A stretch of 64,000 nt of DNA from Escherichia phage p000v, in sequence record NC_055781.1. One strand, given 5' to 3'. The position numbers and the translations under genes were made by a program. Below, in pieces: positions 6,833 through 64,000 of the stretch (the stretch's first letter is position 1; every line of letters starts with the position of its first letter). Under the pieces are notes generated by a model. The model was not told where the DNA came from and made no database searches. It saw nothing but the letters and a program-made list of their open reading frames with translations.

Positions 6833-7840
6833 ATGTTTAAGAAATACAGCAGTCTTGAAAACCACTACAACTCTAAGTTTATTGAAAAACTCTACACTAA
6901 TGGTTTGACTACTGGTGTTTGGGTAGCACGTGAGAAAATCCATGGGACTAACTTCTCGTTAATAATTGAACGTGACAACGTCACATGCGCCAAGCGCACA
7001 GGCCCTATTCTTCCAGCAGAAGATTTTTATGGTTATGAAATCGTACTCAAGAAGTATGATAAGGCTATTAAAGGTGTTCAAGAAGTCATGGGCAGTATTT
7101 CAACTTCAGTGCCAGTGACATATCAAATCTTTGGTGAATTCGCTGGTGGTGGAATTCAGAAAGGTGTTGACTACGGTGAAAAAGATTTCTATGTATTCGA
7201 TATCATCATAAACACGGAAAGCGGTGATACTTATTACATGAGTGATTACGAAATGCAAGATTTCTGTAATGAATTCGGTTTTAAAATGGCACCAATGCTT
7301 GGTCGTGGAACATTTGATTCTCTTATCATGATTCCAAATGACCTTGATTCCGTCTTAGCCGCTTATAACGCTACGGCATCGGAAGACCTTGTCGAAGCAA
7401 ATAATTGTGTATTTGATGCTAATGTTATTGGTGATAATACGGCAGAAGGATATGTTCTGAAGCCTTGTTTCCCTAAATGGCTGCCAAACGGTACTCGTGT
7501 AGCTATTAAGTGCAAGAACTCTAAATTCAGTGAAAAGAAAAAGTCTGATAAGCCTATTAAAACTCAGGTTCCATTAACTGAAATTGACAAAAACTTGCTT
7601 GATGTTCTAGCTTGTTATGTTACATTAAATCGTGTTAACAATGTGATTTCTAAGATTGGGACTGTAACGCCAAAAGATTTTGGCAAAGTGATGGGATTGA
7701 CTGTTCAAGATATTCTGGAAGAAACTTCTCGTGAAGGTATTGTATTAACATCATCTGATAATCCAAATCTTGTTAAGAAAGAATTAGTCCGAATGGTGCA
7801 AGATGTTCTGCGTCCTGCATGGATTGAATTAGTATCATAA
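6833..7840 (+). CDS. rnlB: RNA ligase 2 (Rnl2)
   Basis: 335 aa (T4 Rnl2 334 aa); nucleotidyltransferase motif I KIHGTN with the active-site Lys; ligase motifs downstream. Confidence 0.9.
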
Positions 7841-44181: not shown

Positions 44182-44253
44182 GGCCCTGTAGCTCAATGGG
44201 AGAGCTGTCAGCTCATAACTGATAGGTAGCTGGATCGAAACCAGCCAGGGCCA
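44182..44253 (+). tRNA. tRNA with anticodon CAU (Met, or Ile if C34 is modified)
   Basis: Cloverleaf folded by hand: acceptor GGCCCTG/CAGGGCC (7 bp), D-stem GCTC/GAGC, anticodon stem GTCAG/CTGAT with loop CTCATAA (anticodon CAT at 44214-44216), 5-nt variable loop, T-stem GCTGG/CCAGC with loop ATCGAAA, discriminator A. No encoded CCA. Confidence 0.8.
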
Positions 44254-58192: not shown

Positions 58193-58651
58193 ATGACTAT
58201 CAATTCGGAAGTTTTTATCCGTCGCAATAAACTCCGTCGAATCTTTGAAACGGAGTTTCGTCAAATCAACGCCAGTATAAAAGATGCTGCAAAGTCTCTT
58301 GGACTACCAGGCTTTCATATAAAGTATTCTCAACATCTCTTAGATCGTGCCATCCAGAGAGAAATAGATGAGAATTACGTTTTTGAATTATTTCATAAAG
58401 TAAAAAATCATGTTAAAGAAGTTGCAGAATTTTTATCAATGCCGGCACGTCCAGATGTTGATGAAGATTTTGTCGAAGGTGTCGAATATCGCCCAGGCCG
58501 TTTAGAAATAACTGACGGAAATCTTTGGTTAGGACTTACAGTCTGTCGCGAAAATCCAGCATTCAAAATGAAGACTCTTCAATGCAGAATGGCTATTATT
58601 AACAGTAAACGACTACCAGGAAAAGCTTCTAAAGCAGTGATTAAAATCTAG
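58193..58651 (+). CDS. regB: RegB-like endoribonuclease
   Basis: 152 aa (T4 RegB 153 aa); MTINSEVFIRRNKLRR... matches my recollection of the RegB N-terminus; location between denV and tk. Confidence 0.55.
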   Translation: MTINSEVFIRRNKLRRIFETEFRQINASIKDAAKSLGLPGFHIKYSQHLLDRAIQREIDENYVFELFHKVKNHVKEVAEFLSMPARPDVDEDFVEGVEYRPGRLEITDGNLWLGLTVCRENPAFKMKTLQCRMAIINSKRLPGKASKAVIKI

Positions 58652-59202: not shown

Positions 59203-59546
59203 CCAAAATGTTGGCTTTAATAGTTGGCTTGGTTTCATTTAACGCTCTTGCTAATACTACATATACTGATGTAACGGAGTATACAAACAGAACGGCGTCT
59301 GATTATTGTGGTAAAAGTCAAGAGTGTAAAGTAGATTTTTCACAAAAATTGTTATATGCATATAAAGACGGAGAAAAAGATGGGGCGTCTAGTAGGTTCA
59401 AGGCGTCTACCTTAATTAAAAGATACTATAAAAAATGGCAAATATTAGAATGCTCGGTGGCGGAACCTAAAGATAAGGCAGCATGCAATTCTATGGTGGA
59501 CCGTCTAGTTGACTCTTATACTAGAGGACTTGCAGCAAGTGATTAA
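59199..59546 (+). CDS. Secreted Cys-rich protein (115 aa) with signal peptide
   Basis: Signal peptide MTKMLALIVGLVSFNALA; six Cys in the mature part; 115 aa corresponds by position and size to T4 vs, but the signal peptide makes that identity uncertain. Confidence 0.5.
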   Translation: MTKMLALIVGLVSFNALANTTYTDVTEYTNRTASDYCGKSQECKVDFSQKLLYAYKDGEKDGASSRFKASTLIKRYYKKWQILECSVAEPKDKAACNSMVDRLVDSYTRGLAASD

Positions 59547-60006
59547 AAACTATATCAAGGGCGATATTGTCGCCCTGTTTTCTGAAGGTAAAAATGTTGC
59601 TCATGGTTGTAACTGTTTCCATACAATGGGCGCAGGAGTAGCCGGGCAATTAGCGAAGGCCTTTCCAAAGATTTTAGAAGCCGATAAACTTCAAACCGAA
59701 TTCGGAGACGAGTCTAAACTTGGGTCTTATTCGGTTTATGAAAAATATTTTAAGACCCATAAAGCTTATTGCTTTAATCTTTATACACAGTTTGAGCCGG
59801 GACCTAATTTTGAGTACTCTGCTTTAATGAATTGTATAATAGAATTAAATGAATTCGGAAAAAATAAGATAACAAAGCCTGTAATTTATATGCCAAGAAT
59901 TGGTGTAGGTATAGGTGGTGGAAACTGGGATATCATTGAAGAAATTCTTGATACATATTCCACTAAACTAGAAATTGTGATTGTTGATTGGGAACCATTG
60001 CTATGA
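59539..60006 (+). CDS. Macro-domain-like protein (putative ADP-ribose binding / hydrolase)
   Basis: Track ORF starts with TTG at 59509 and has no ATG; GTG 59539 with SD GAGGA 10 nt upstream proposed. Motifs GDIVALFSEGKNVAHGCNC...GAGVAG and IGVGIGGGNWD resemble macro domain glycine-rich loops. Confidence 0.45.
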   Translation: MIKNYIKGDIVALFSEGKNVAHGCNCFHTMGAGVAGQLAKAFPKILEADKLQTEFGDESKLGSYSVYEKYFKTHKAYCFNLYTQFEPGPNFEYSALMNCIIELNEFGKNKITKPVIYMPRIGVGIGGGNWDIIEEILDTYSTKLEIVIVDWEPLL

Positions 60007-60215
60007 AAGTACATTACCCACATCCGTTTGATCCTAAAAATAAAGCAGTAATTATTCGTCAATGGGAACGCATTTGTCGTACTAAATGTCCAATTAATAG
60101 TCCACATGACGTAGATAAAGACTACATCGGAACATTCGTTGAATATACCTTTATTGATAAGAAAGGTCGTAAACAACATGTAGAAGAATATTGCTTAAAG
60201 GTGACATGGTTATGA
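60003..60215 (+). CDS. Hypothetical protein
   Basis: Start at M6 of the track ORF (ATGA overlap); 70 aa; CxxC...C...H pattern. Confidence 0.5.
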   Translation: MKVHYPHPFDPKNKAVIIRQWERICRTKCPINSPHDVDKDYIGTFVEYTFIDKKGRKQHVEEYCLKVTWL

Positions 60216-60243
60216 GTCAAACAAAAATTCTTACAGGTGCTAA

Positions 60244-60426
60244 ATGAAATTGACTAAAGAAGAGAAAACTAAACTGTTCGAACTTATCCATGACCTATTG
60301 GATGAGCAAGCAGCCACCAATGCGTACGATGAATATGCTCCTTTAACAGATGAAGAATATCAAGCATTGTTGGAATCATTTGACAGGAAAGAACAAGAAC
60401 TCATTGACTACGTGAATTCACTATAA
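60244..60426 (+). CDS. Hypothetical acidic protein
   Basis: 60 aa ORF just upstream of tk. Confidence 0.5.
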   Translation: MKLTKEEKTKLFELIHDLLDEQAATNAYDEYAPLTDEEYQALLESFDRKEQELIDYVNSL

Positions 60427-60435
60427 GGGACTCTT

Positions 60436-61017
60436 ATGGCTAGTTTAATTTTTACCTATGCCGCTATGAACGCTGGTAAGTCTGCTTCATTACTTACTGC
60501 CGCACATAACTATAAAGAACGTGGCATGGGTGTATTAGTTCTTAAACCGGCTATTGATACTCGCGATTCAAAAGGTGAAATAGTCTCTCGTATCGGTATT
60601 CGTCAGGATGCCAATATAATTACAAAAGACATGGATATCTTTGAATTTTATAAATGGGCAGCAGCACAAAAGGATATTCATTGTGTATTTGTTGACGAAG
60701 CTCAGTTCTTAACTACTGAAAAGGTGTATCAACTTAGTCGTATTGTTGACGTATACAATGTGCCAGTAATGGCATATGGACTACGAACAGATTTTAAAGG
60801 TAATCTATTTGAAGGTTCTCAAGCATTAATGGCTATTGCCGATAAGCTTGTTGAACTTAAAGGTGTCTGTCATTGCGGTAAAAAAGCCACAATGGTAGCT
60901 AGAGTCACGGAAGACGGACTTCCAATTACAGATGGCAGTCAAATTGAAATTGGTGATACCGATAGATACGTGTCATTATGCCGGAAGCATTGGAATGATT
61001 TGACAGGGTTGTTATAA
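60436..61017 (+). CDS. tk: Thymidine kinase
   Basis: 193 aa (T4 Tk 193 aa); P-loop MNAGKS, VDEAQF, zinc-binding CHCG...C...C motif. Confidence 0.93.
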   Translation: MASLIFTYAAMNAGKSASLLTAAHNYKERGMGVLVLKPAIDTRDSKGEIVSRIGIRQDANIITKDMDIFEFYKWAAAQKDIHCVFVDEAQFLTTEKVYQLSRIVDVYNVPVMAYGLRTDFKGNLFEGSQALMAIADKLVELKGVCHCGKKATMVARVTEDGLPITDGSQIEIGDTDRYVSLCRKHWNDLTGLL

Positions 61018-61044
61018 ATACTAATATCTAACCAAGAGGTATAT

Positions 61045-61257
61045 ATGCAGCAATTAAACGAAAGACAACTTCGTAATCTTACTGTAACCCAATTGGATGA
61101 AATCCGAAGAGAATTAGGACATTCTATTTCTCATTTAAACGAGGATATCCGTCAAACTGGTTCTAAAGCTGATTATACACGCAAGCGCAAGCTGGAAAAA
61201 TACCTCACAGATGTTAAGGCCGTCCAAAGGCGAAAAATAAATACTGGCCAAAATTAA
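61045..61257 (+). CDS. Hypothetical protein
   Basis: 70 aa basic helical ORF downstream of tk. Confidence 0.5.
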
Positions 61258-61269
61258 CAGGAGGCCTAT

Positions 61270-61572
61270 ATGGCCTTAAGAGCGATAGCTGTCATGGCGA
61301 TGCTGGGTTTTTTTGCAGCAACAACTCCTATCGTTGGTACTGCACGTATTGACCCATATTTTGATAACTTTATGGAATCAGGGATTAAAAACGTATATAC
61401 TTTGTTCGAAATTCAAAATGTTGAGAATTCTGAAAAATTCTATAAGTATATGGCAAAGCATTACAAAAATAGCCCCTGTGATGATGCATTTGAATGTCAT
61501 GAACAAGGCATAAAAACTGCCAGACAATTTGCTGAGTTCATGAAAATAAAATTAGAGCCTACATCTATCTAA
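61270..61572 (+). CDS. rI: RI-like lysis inhibition regulator (antiholin), membrane-anchored/periplasmic
   Basis: 100 aa; N-terminal signal-anchor MALRAIAVMAMLGFFAAT; resembles T4 RI (97 aa) in size, N-terminus and position next to tk. Confidence 0.6.
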   Translation: MALRAIAVMAMLGFFAATTPIVGTARIDPYFDNFMESGIKNVYTLFEIQNVENSEKFYKYMAKHYKNSPCDDAFECHEQGIKTARQFAEFMKIKLEPTSI

Positions 61573-61578
61573 TTTACT

Positions 61579-61608
61579 AGCCCCTTCCTTATGGTTGGGG
61601 CTTTTTTG
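61579..61608 (+). terminator. Rho-independent terminator (copy of the 45618 hairpin)
   Basis: AGCCCC-TTCCTTATGGTT-GGGGCT followed by TTTTTTG; same stem sequence as at 45618. Confidence 0.7.
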
Positions 61609-61617
61609 TATCTATCA

Positions 61618-61673
61618 GTTTACTTCTCCGCAGGTTGTGTTATAGTAGTCTTTACTTACTAGAGGAGAACGTT
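61618..61673 (+). promoter_or_regulatory. Early promoter + stem-loop cassette (PeSL-like)
   Basis: GTTTAC (61618-61623), TGTTATAGT -10, inverted repeat TTCTCC...GGAGAA pairing with the SD. Confidence 0.6.
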
Positions 61674-61853
61674 ATGTCACGTAAAGAAAAAATTTCTAAG
61701 TTAATGTTTTTGATTGAAGAGTACGCTAATGCCGTATCTGATTGGGAGAATGCCCACGGGTGCGAAGATGGCGATATTGATATCAATAAGGCAATGAAAA
61801 AGATGGCTGACGCCCACACCGAATTGCAAATGTATGTTAACGAGATTATGTGA
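61674..61853 (+). CDS. Hypothetical protein
   Basis: Start at M14 of the track ORF (SD GAGGAG); 59 aa. Confidence 0.5.
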   Translation: MSRKEKISKLMFLIEEYANAVSDWENAHGCEDGDIDINKAMKKMADAHTELQMYVNEIM

Positions 61854-61860
61854 GGACATT

Positions 61861-62067
61861 ATGCTTTACGATTATACTGGAAAATCTGAAGACGGTGTAC
61901 TTGAACTTTTACCTGAAAGCGCTGAAGATGATGATACGGTGGTGATGTTTTGTAAAAATGGTCCTGGGGATAAGGGATGGATTTATCTTCGTCAAGAAAA
62001 TGATCTAATTGTTTTGGACCCAAAACAAGTTGAAGAACTTTATCAACATTTAAAACATAATCGGTAG
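61861..62067 (+). CDS. Hypothetical protein
   Basis: Start at M10 of the track ORF (SD GAGGA); 68 aa. Confidence 0.5.
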   Translation: MLYDYTGKSEDGVLELLPESAEDDDTVVMFCKNGPGDKGWIYLRQENDLIVLDPKQVEELYQHLKHNR

Positions 62068-62124
62068 TTTACATCTTGGTAGGATTATGTTATAGTAGTC
62101 CTACCAAAACGAACGGAGAACAAA
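62067..62124 (+). promoter_or_regulatory. Early promoter + stem-loop cassette (PeSL-like)
   Basis: GTTTAC (about 62067-62072), TGTTATAGT inside the inverted repeat TGGTAGGA...TCCTACCA, SD GGAGAA. Confidence 0.6.
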
Positions 62125-62235
62125 ATGAAACTTTTGCTTATCGCTTATGTTGTAGTACAATACAATTATCCGATGTTTACTTATAACATGGTAAACGGCA
62201 TAGTGAATCTTATTGAAACGAGTATGGTAAAATGA
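62125..62235 (+). CDS. Small hydrophobic peptide (36 aa), not in ORF track
   Basis: ATG 62125 after the cassette leader; MKLLLIAYVVVQYNYPMFTYNMVNGIVNLIETSMVK; stop TGA overlaps the next ATG. Confidence 0.4.
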   Translation: MKLLLIAYVVVQYNYPMFTYNMVNGIVNLIETSMVK

Positions 62236-62411
62236 CCCGTGAACAAGCTATTAAATTGATGGAACTTATCCGTAACTTACGTGAAGCCGATTCAGATTTG
62301 AATGATGTAGCTTATCATGCAGTAAATGATAACGAAGACTTTTATGAAAAACAGGTTGATGCTTGTCTGAATGATTTGGTGAATTTTGTTGAAACTTTAA
62401 TTGGTGAATAA
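62232..62411 (+). CDS. Small acidic protein (59 aa), not in ORF track
   Basis: ATG 62232 (ATGA overlap); MTREQAIKLMELIRNLREADSDLNDV...; stop TAA 62409-62411. Confidence 0.45.
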   Translation: MTREQAIKLMELIRNLREADSDLNDVAYHAVNDNEDFYEKQVDACLNDLVNFVETLIGE

Positions 62412-62412
62412 T

Positions 62413-62943
62413 ATGAAAATTGTAATTGAAACAACCGAGTTGTTTGGTGATTTATGTATCGAAAAACGTGGTTATGTGTATGTTCTGACACAAGAAGATG
62501 ATTCTGTTACTATTCTTCCTATGGAACTGGACAAGATTTTGAAACTCAATCCGCCTGGCCATGCATCTGTAATTAACATCGATGAAGACCTTCAAGTTCG
62601 TTTTTATCACGGTCTTTATAGTGGGGTTAATATCGAAACAGAAGATGAATGCCTTTCTATTAATAATTGGAAAACATTCGTCACTAAGGTGAAAGAATTA
62701 ATGGAATCTGAAACAGCCAAAAAGGCCAAACTTCAATGGGCTAAATGCCGTAATGCTTTTATTACAAATCAGGACCGCCCTGACTATACAACAGTCCTAG
62801 GTGTTAATCCTTCTTATGAAGATGGCGATGTTGTAGTTATTCGTCAAATTGATGACCTTCGTCAGCATATCGTTACATTAGACAAAGATGAAGCAGTTGC
62901 TCTTAAAGCTTATCTCGATTCTATTATCCCAACTTTGAAATAA
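62413..62943 (+). CDS. Hypothetical protein
   Basis: Start at M5 of the track ORF; 176 aa. Confidence 0.55.
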   Translation: MKIVIETTELFGDLCIEKRGYVYVLTQEDDSVTILPMELDKILKLNPPGHASVINIDEDLQVRFYHGLYSGVNIETEDECLSINNWKTFVTKVKELMESETAKKAKLQWAKCRNAFITNQDRPDYTTVLGVNPSYEDGDVVVIRQIDDLRQHIVTLDKDEAVALKAYLDSIIPTLK

Positions 62944-62952
62944 GGAATTATT

Positions 62953-63426
62953 ATGATTATCAATGAAAACTCTTGGCACTTTAAAATTTATGCCGCGTTT
63001 AATAGTACATGGAATCGCCCGAAAACGTTGTGTGCTTATTTTTGGAAAACGTTAATCCCGGTATTGGCTGTTTCAATTATTGGATTTGCGATTTTAGCCG
63101 CAGTCACAATCATTGGCCAGGAAATTTTAACTAAATTCTTTGTTTTTAGCAGTCTATGGACATTAGTTCCAGCCTCAATTGGTGTAGGTGTTTTATTCAT
63201 TGCATTATGTGTTGGTATTTCTATAGTTTTAGTATTAGGCATACCGTGGCTAATCGACTTATACAGAGAGCGGAAGTATTATAAAGAAGTTGAGCTCATT
63301 GCACAAAACCAAGAACGAATTAAAAATGGACTTGAGCCTATTGAACGTAAGAAATCATTAATAGGTGAATACCTTAAAGCTCGTAAAGAAAAAGTCTGTC
63401 CTACTCTTGAATATAAGGCTAAATGA
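62953..63426 (+). CDS. Membrane protein (three or four predicted TM helices)
   Basis: 157 aa; hydrophobic segments LIPVLAVSIIGFAILAAVTII, LVPASIGVGVLFIALCVGISIVLVLGIPWLI; basic C-terminal tail. Confidence 0.55.
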   Translation: MIINENSWHFKIYAAFNSTWNRPKTLCAYFWKTLIPVLAVSIIGFAILAAVTIIGQEILTKFFVFSSLWTLVPASIGVGVLFIALCVGISIVLVLGIPWLIDLYRERKYYKEVELIAQNQERIKNGLEPIERKKSLIGEYLKARKEKVCPTLEYKAK

Positions 63427-64000
63427 TGAAAACGATTGTTAAGGCTTACTTTGGTAGCCACCTTTATGGAACGTCTACTCCTGAATCTGACGTCGATTTT
63501 AAAGAAATTTATGTCCCTCATGCTCGTGATATCTTGACCGGTAACGTTAAAGAACACATGAGCAAGAACACGAATAACACATCTTCTAAGAACACAAAAG
63601 ACGACGTGGACCATGAGTTGTATAGTCTCAAATATTTCTTTAAACTAGCTGCGGATGGTGAAACCGTCGCATTAGACATGCTTCACACTCCACCAAGTCT
63701 AGTAGTTAAATCTGATTTGCCTGATGTATGGAAGTATATTCAAGATAACAGGTCTCGTTTCTATACCACTAACATGAAATCTTATTTAGGGTACGTCCGT
63801 AAGCAAGCTTCTAAATACGGTGTCAAGGGTTCTCGACTGGCTGTTCTTCGTCAAGCCCTTAAACGTTCTAATGAATGGGGACAATACTTTGATAACGGTG
63901 CAGTAATTCGTTTATCACATATGAAGAATGTTCTGCCTGTAGGTGAATTTGCTTCGTGGGTTGAAACCGAAAACGAGAAAACAGGTAAGCAAACATTCTA
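63423..64000 (+). CDS. Predicted nucleotidyltransferase (Pol-beta superfamily motif), truncated at window end
   Basis: ATG 63423 (ATGA overlap); no stop within window; N-terminus YFGSHLYGTSTPESDVDF fits the hG[GS]x(9-13)DhDh minimal nucleotidyltransferase signature. Confidence 0.55.
   Translation, partial: MMKTIVKAYFGSHLYGTSTPESDVDFKEIYVPHARDILTGNVKEHMSKNTNNTSSKNTKDDVDHELYSLKYFFKLAADGETVALDMLHTPPSLVVKSDLPDVWKYIQDNRSRFYTTNMKSYLGYVRKQASKYGVKGSRLAVLRQALKRSNEWGQYFDNGAVIRLSHMKNVLPVGEFASWVETENEKTGKQTF

Follow-up and report, generated by a model that had tools for sequence, protein, structure and literature searches.

A T4 nrdC.11 ortholog at the end of the window

We analysed a 64,000-nucleotide stretch of the genome of Escherichia phage p000v (NC_055781.1), hereafter the window, and in particular the open reading frame (ORF) that starts at position 63423 and runs off its end, where a first-pass annotation of the sequence had described a partial nucleotidyltransferase (NTase) gene. 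The gene is of an already known kind: it is a T4 nrdC.11 ortholog of the RlaP family, widely conserved in T4-like phages. It is intact and conserved, and it encodes a two-domain NTase with a complete catalytic signature. Its features are given below. Residues are numbered from the first ATG, whereas conservation was derived from a 120-sequence alignment (A1) and is given in the numbering of P0004, the full-length protein of phage mobillu, to which one must be added to obtain the numbering from the first ATG.

63423..64000, plus strand: first 192 codons (58%; 5' 578 nt) of the nrdC.11-type RlaP gene, comprising the complete NTase domain and the first part of the helical one.
63426..63428, plus strand: second in-frame ATG, the annotated start of the coding sequence in the relatives L001, L002 and L084, giving a product of 328 amino acids (aa).
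63453..63458, plus strand: Gly11-Ser12 of the hG[GS] motif (P0004 G10 invariant, S11 nearly invariant).
63489..63497, plus strand: Asp23-Val24-Asp25, the metal-binding DhD motif (P0004 D22 and D24 at least 90% conserved; predicted strand 23-30).
63603..63611, plus strand: Asp61-Val62-Asp63, an acidic pair (P0004 D60 and D62 at least 90% conserved; start of predicted strand 61-67).
63675..63677, plus strand: Asp85 in the conserved GETxAxDMLH helix (P0004 D84 and M85 at least 90% conserved; predicted helix 80-86).

By direct translation, the plus-strand frame from 63423 to 64000 is free of stop codons over 192 sense codons and starts MMKTIVKAYFGSHLYGTSTPESDVDF. Its NTase motif, YFGSHLYGTSTPESDVDF, had been called almost textbook, and it does follow the hG[GS]x10DhDh signature, with F10-G11-S12, ten residues, and D23-V24-D25-F26. 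The ORF is absent from the program-made list of ORFs only because its reading frame leaves the end of the window, as the first-pass annotation had supposed. The start is ambiguous, since ATG codons at 63423 and 63426 follow each other in frame; the distance from an AAGG (63415-63418) is 4 nt for the first and 7 nt for the second. Given the strong homology of the plus-strand frame, we rejected the antisense ORF at 63279..63614 (111 aa, minus strand) as spurious.

The continuation of the gene past position 64000 was read by proxy from two metagenome contigs, L084 (ENA) and L085 (JGI), which were retrieved by exact-sequence look-up of the 157-aa protein encoded upstream. Both contigs show 100.000% identity to positions 61489-64000 (2,512 nt) and both extend beyond the end of the window. 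In L084 the ORF is intact, with 329 codons and a TAA stop at codon 330. Hence, the gene is truncated by the end of the window, and the best available proxy for the source genome carries neither a stop nor a frameshift just past it. The part of the protein encoded in the window is identical to P0004 at 190 of 191 positions. Relatives occur in 1,566 phage records, 1,448 of which cover at least 80% of the protein.

Family assignment and conservation

The 192-aa fragment alone matches the Pfam family PF10127 (RlaP; E 6.3e-11, 42.9 bits for a cut-off of 23) and the PHROGs family phrog_388, labelled 'nucleotidyltransferase' (E 5e-69). The motif is therefore not a chance match, and the gene belongs to the Pol-beta superfamily of NTases, as first proposed. 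The full-length protein, taken from the contig with 100% identity, scores higher against PF10127 (49.1 bits for the same cut-off), and the profile search of this complete protein assigned it to RlaP and to no other fold. Searches of NCBIfam and PADLOC gave no match.

An exhaustive HMMER search of 1.84 billion cluster representatives retrieved 3,274 relatives at E ≤ 1e-3, of which 750 at E ≤ 1e-30. Among the 150 matches listed, most are 300-350 aa long and aligned end to end. PF10127 was matched by 119 of 120 diverse relatives. Besides the catalytic residues given above, the C-terminal part of the protein has its own set of conserved positions (P0004 Y123, Q127, K130, Y131, R137, Y219, G220, R222, D233, W234, K235, S238, H239, R242, K270 and G272). 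The first-pass annotation had placed the protein among the minimal NTases. This part of the description did not hold, because the complete protein has 328-329 aa and a conserved C-terminal helical domain of its own.

In some T4-like phages, namely E26, kaaroe and vB_Eco_TB34 (H112-H114), the homologs match in two pieces that cover 66-86% of the query, which suggests, from the alignments, a shorter variant that may lack part of the central region.

Predicted fold

The AlphaFold2 model built with the 120-sequence alignment has a mean predicted local distance difference test score (pLDDT) of 93.8 and a predicted template modelling score (pTM) of 0.86. It comprises an alpha/beta NTase domain (~1-115), a helical domain (118-299) with a three-strand beta insert (~176-200), and a terminal helix (308-327). 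The nucleotidyltransferases among the Foldseek matches are all of the Pol-beta type: HalB, 3c18, kanamycin nucleotidyltransferase, ANT(4'), LinB and AadA. Judging from the topology of the model, the third catalytic carboxylate probably comes from Asp61 or Asp63. The substrate-binding part, for which a separate partner protein had initially been envisaged, corresponds to the C-terminal domain of the protein itself.

Orthology with T4 nrdC.11

Over its last 3 kb, the window shows 96-97.5% identity to many genomes of Mosigvirus (T4-like phages, Straboviridae), and the 578-nt gene fragment is 99.1% identical to phage mobillu. The genes run in the order tk, rI.1, rI, several small ORFs, a homolog of mobD.1/y05I, a 157-aa membrane-protein ORF and the NTase gene. 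The ortholog is called nrdC.11 in the records of T2, JS98 and T4, where the T4 protein (NP_049709.1, 336 aa) is labelled 'nucleotidyltransferase'. The gene at 63423 is thus the ortholog of T4 nrdC.11 in a Mosigvirus genome. It has been annotated as a nucleotidyltransferase (COG3541) in T4-like phages since 2006 (PMC1524935).

The p000v and T4 genes occupy the same early-gene slot (tk - rI - mobD.x - nrdC.11 - nrdC.10). Representative Tequatrovirus orthologs show ~78% protein identity, and T4 NrdC.11, formerly an uncharacterised 38.9 kDa protein, matches PF10127 over the same model positions. There are also differences. The T4 protein has 336 aa and ours 328-329; the mobD homing endonuclease lies directly upstream of the gene in T4, whereas here this place is taken by the 157-aa membrane-protein ORF; and an additional 88-aa ORF separates nrdC.11 from nrdC.10 only here.

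Many GenBank records (H21, H24, H28, H30 and L002 among our matches) label the nrdC.1-nrdC.11 block 'thioredoxin'. This label is an error inherited from the locus names (nrdC.x), since only nrdC itself encodes a thioredoxin.

Association of the family with RNA repair

The name RlaP stands for RNA ligase-associating Pol-beta (PMC12776372, PMC7824862). Carruthers, Fatma and Huang (bioRxiv, December 2025) studied two Pseudomonas RlaPs whose genes lie between rtcB and rtcA (PMC12776372). These enzymes, PfRlaP and PaRlaP, add one or two nucleoside monophosphates (or deoxynucleoside monophosphates) to the 3'-OH of RNA, best with Mn2+. DNA and protein are not among their substrates, and E. coli proteins were not labelled (PMC12776372). 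Both favour the broken anticodon-loop end of a mimic of cleaved tRNA, and when the missing nucleotide was put back before ligation, the repaired tRNA regained part of its aminoacylation (PMC12776372). The authors proposed that RlaP serves as the antidote against ribotoxins of the RloC kind, which remove nucleotides once they have cut (PMC12776372). In their similarity network of PF10127, T4 NrdC.11 is an RlaP of cluster 5 and the assayed enzymes belong to cluster 1a; the 3'-OH/5'-P chemistry of the T4 enzymes suits RlaP better than RtcB does (PMC12776372).

The phage-type protein and the RlaPs of Pseudomonas fluorescens and P. aeruginosa belong to the same Pfam family and have in common the GS/DxD core. 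The order of the parts predicted in our model, i.e., NTase domain, helical domain and terminal helix, is also that of PfRlaP, in whose crystal structure the terminal helix folds back against the NTase domain. However, the C-terminal half of the phage protein falls outside the match to PF10127 (model positions 23-148 of 249). The proteins differ in that only the N-terminal ~60% of the Pfam model is aligned in the phage protein, which is ~80 residues longer than the 249 model positions and carries the predicted beta insert. Unlike the Pseudomonas genes, the phage gene lies outside an rtcB operon.

Cellular members of the phage-type subfamily are also associated with RNA repair genes. A scan of prokaryotes, with one genome per species, retrieved 156 cellular relatives, of which we kept 80. 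These are 33-52% identical over the full length and all have the DWKAxSHAxR motif. Many of their loci are on megabase-size contigs, from Desulfobacterales, Nitrospirota and Alphaproteobacteria. We clustered the neighbouring genes and checked the representatives of the clusters against Pfam. At least one RNA repair gene was found within 6 kb in 19 of the 80 bacterial or archaeal loci: RtcB in ten, bacterial Pnkp in eight, Hen1 in seven, Ro60/TROVE in four and T4-like Pnkp in three. The repair genes are mostly on the same strand as the RlaP gene, and several loci have Hen1-Pnkp-RlaP arrays in which the genes abut or overlap. Genes of the RtcB, Pnkp, Hen1 and Ro60 types are normally present at most once per genome, and the probability of finding one by chance in a 12-kb window of a multi-megabase genome is, as a rough estimate, well under 1%. 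Set against this rate, 19 of 80 loci make the association with RNA repair a real one for the subfamily.

An antisense ORF of ~157 aa recurs within the RlaP genes of 38 of the 80 bacterial loci (L086-L165; e.g., L087 5851..6294, minus strand), and its products cluster by sequence. In all likelihood this ORF is no gene and arises from the conservation of the sense frame.

With these results at hand, we think it reasonably probable that this nrdC.11 ortholog, as a member of the RlaP family, adds nucleotides to the 3'-OH of RNA in the way of the Pseudomonas RlaPs. We infer its substrate, its product and its biological role in the phage from homology and genomic context.

Several points weigh against this assignment. 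In all cases the match to PF10127 spans only model positions ~20-148 of 249, so the protein belongs to an RlaP subfamily that is divergent and whose C-terminal half is distinct. As this half is the substrate-binding one, the specificity for the substrate could differ. We found no paper testing NrdC.11 itself, the assayed RlaPs being only those of cluster 1a from Pseudomonas. T4 survives the deletion of nrdC.11-mobD.3 in the laboratory (PMC9825161), and no phenotype is known. The closest solved structure is HalB (PDB 9dbh), which synthesises DNA oligomers and does not repair RNA, and sequence searches of the PDB with the single protein or with the 120-sequence profile retrieved no relative and no crystal structure of an RlaP. 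Finally, a homolog of Rnl1 was found within 8 kb of the NTase gene in two of 79 viral loci, and Pnkp and Rnl2 in none of them. We rejected an operon-level link to repair genes in phages because these three are nearly absent within this distance.

Healing and sealing enzymes are nevertheless encoded at a distance. T4 has genes for Pnkp and Rnl1 at other places in the genome, and the window encodes an RNA ligase:

6833..7840, plus strand: Rnl2-type RNA ligase, ortholog of T4 rnlB/24.1 (Pfam RNA_ligase 4.2e-23, T4_Rnl2_C 6.1e-23).

This ligase is a plausible candidate for the sealing enzyme in the repair pathway of the NTase. Its gene adjoins a gp24-like ORF and lies 56 kb from the NTase gene, of which it is no operon partner.

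Neighbouring genes

The other features of the window and those read from its relatives are the following:

62953..63426, plus strand: 157-aa membrane-protein ORF (phrog_944 'membrane protein', 1e-51); its TGA at 63424-63426 overlaps the ATG of the NTase gene (ATGA).
59509..60006, plus strand: Macro-domain protein (Pfam Macro, E 7e-6).
58193..58651, plus strand: homolog of the RegB endoribonuclease, from the annotation of the relative in L001.
44182..44253, plus strand: tRNA-Met (CAT), identified with ARAGORN, the sole tRNA gene of the 64-kb window.
L084 3033..3299, plus strand: 88-aa ORF (phrog_2243); N-terminus like a signal peptide, one Gly-rich stretch.
L002 8407..9387: nrdC.10 homolog of 326 aa, with weak sub-threshold matches to P-loop/AAA families (AAA_22, nSTAND3) and a weak match to HTH_37.

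The membrane-protein ORF and the NTase gene are co-transcribed, and possibly also translationally coupled. The former lies upstream of the latter in 41 of the 79 viral loci, and a search for it in the T4 region and the bacterial loci gave no match. It evolves fast: its products are 25-48% identical where the adjacent NTases are 64-78% identical. A single-sequence model of the membrane protein was poor (pLDDT 69.7, pTM 0.38).

Beyond the stop codon of the NTase gene, L084 has a spacer of 33 nt, the 88-aa ORF, a hairpin, a promoter-like box and the nrdC.10 homolog. The hairpin, 3' of the 88-aa ORF, is GC-rich and terminator-like (GGGGACCTTCGGGTCCC) and has a T-rich tail. The box that follows it, ATGCTTTTA, resembles a T4 middle promoter when read by eye. 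Scans of positions 60000-64000 for sigma-70 promoters and terminators gave results no better than those of shuffled sequence. The nrdC.10 homolog is near the NTase gene in 36 of the 79 viral loci. It is of unknown function in PHROGs, has a faint similarity to clamp loaders, and is called 'helicase loader' in some records. The Macro-domain and RegB genes belong to the early-gene block of the NTase gene and lie a few kb upstream of it. In the region corresponding to that of the tRNA-Met gene, T4 has a cluster of eight tRNA genes.

Alternative functions

We considered other functions for the NTase. One is the repair or rebuilding of the 3'-CCA end of tRNAs, which would make the protein a functional analogue of the CCA-adding enzyme. 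The RlaPs of Pseudomonas also label full-length tRNAs and rRNAs at the 3'-OH (PMC12776372), one distant phage homolog (H117) is annotated as 'tRNA nucleotidyltransferase', and this Mosigvirus, with its single tRNA gene, depends on the tRNAs of its host. Yet RlaP shows little specificity for the nucleoside triphosphate (NTP) and, in a tRNA mimic, the end at the cleaved anticodon loop is favoured over the acceptor one (PMC12776372). The protein also has no Pfam match to the families of CCA-adding enzymes. We regard this function as unlikely; moreover, the host already has a CCA-adding enzyme.

The NTase might instead nucleotidylylate a small molecule, as the kanamycin and lincosamide nucleotidyltransferases do, or AMPylate a host protein, in the course of the takeover of the host. 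Its structural matches to such enzymes have weak scores (Foldseek E ~4e-3, template modelling score 0.3) and mirror a two-domain architecture that is generic for Pol-beta proteins. By Pfam, the protein belongs to RlaP and to none of the aminoglycoside nucleotidyltransferase families, the RNA-repair neighbourhoods of the subfamily favour an RNA substrate, and the assayed RlaPs left the proteins of E. coli unlabelled (PMC12776372). An activity of this kind seems improbable to us.

The resemblance of the fold to HalB raises the possibility of a template-independent, possibly protein-primed, oligonucleotide synthase, whose products might be oligo(dA)-like and, for example, hold the HalA channel of a Hailong host shut, or of a phage-borne Hailong-like pair formed with the upstream membrane protein. 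According to reviews, HalB makes tyrosine-primed oligo(dA) and is a component of a host defence in which it is paired with the HalA channel. HalB differs from our protein in size (217 aa), is 15% identical to it and has no sequence homology to it that we could detect, even when the PDB was searched with the 120-sequence profile, and no PADLOC model was matched. T4 keeps nrdC.11 without the membrane-protein ORF, which is also absent from all bacterial loci, and the cellular relatives accompany RNA repair genes, not membrane effectors. Furthermore, the characterised RlaPs leave DNA unextended and add only one or two nucleotides (PMC12776372). We thus hold this function to be very unlikely. The divergent C-terminal half and the HalB-like core led us to a variant of this idea, to which we give even less credence: the NrdC.11 subfamily could be oligonucleotide synthases that act in counter-defence, mimicking or replenishing the oligo(dA) that closes HalA, maybe together with the membrane protein.

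We rejected, and give next to no weight to, a role as the minimal nucleotidyltransferase in a toxin-antitoxin pair of the MNT/HEPN kind, with a downstream partner that it would AMPylate or neutralise: the hG[GS]...DhD signature (GSx10DxD) is common to MNT proteins, the MNT/HEPN complex 7ae9 is a low-ranking Foldseek match (E 0.18) and the 192-aa fragment has a sub-threshold match to Pfam NTP_transf_2 (E 0.05), but such modules consist of an NTase of ~100-150 aa and an adjacent HEPN gene, whereas ours is a two-domain enzyme of 329 aa with a conserved C-terminal domain, whose neighbours are a membrane protein, the secreted-type 88-aa ORF and a P-loop protein, and which the terminator-like hairpin parts from nrdC.10. 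The HEPN partner suggested at first was not found: none of the nine neighbouring products scanned with Pfam, which include the upstream ORF and seven downstream ORFs from the nearest relative, matched a HEPN family, and PHROGs returned for them the membrane protein and unknowns.

A possible role in tRNA repair

If the nrdC.11 product acts as an RlaP, its acidic residues would hold two Mn2+ or Mg2+ ions, with which the NTP would be bound, and one or two nucleotides would be joined to the 3'-OH of a broken RNA in a template-independent manner. The strongest candidate for this RNA is the 5' half of a tRNA that a host anticodon nuclease like RloC has cleaved, and then trimmed, in the anticodon loop; another essential RNA might also be cut in this way. 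The phage Pnkp would first heal the ends, leaving a 3'-OH and a 5'-P. After the addition, the break would be closed by a 5'-phosphate RNA ligase of the phage, for which both Rnl1 and the Rnl2 of 6833..7840 are candidates. A fraction of functional tRNA molecules might be regained in this way.

The RlaP family was named in 2016 and characterised biochemically in 2025, in a study that cites T4 NrdC.11 by name. A by-product of our analysis concerns annotation, since nrdC.11 and its neighbours are mislabelled 'thioredoxin' in many GenBank records. If it is true that NrdC.11 restores the nucleotides lost to anticodon nucleases of the wobble-excising kind, RloC among them, it would complete the classic counter-defence of T4, in which tRNAs are repaired by Pnkp and Rnl1.

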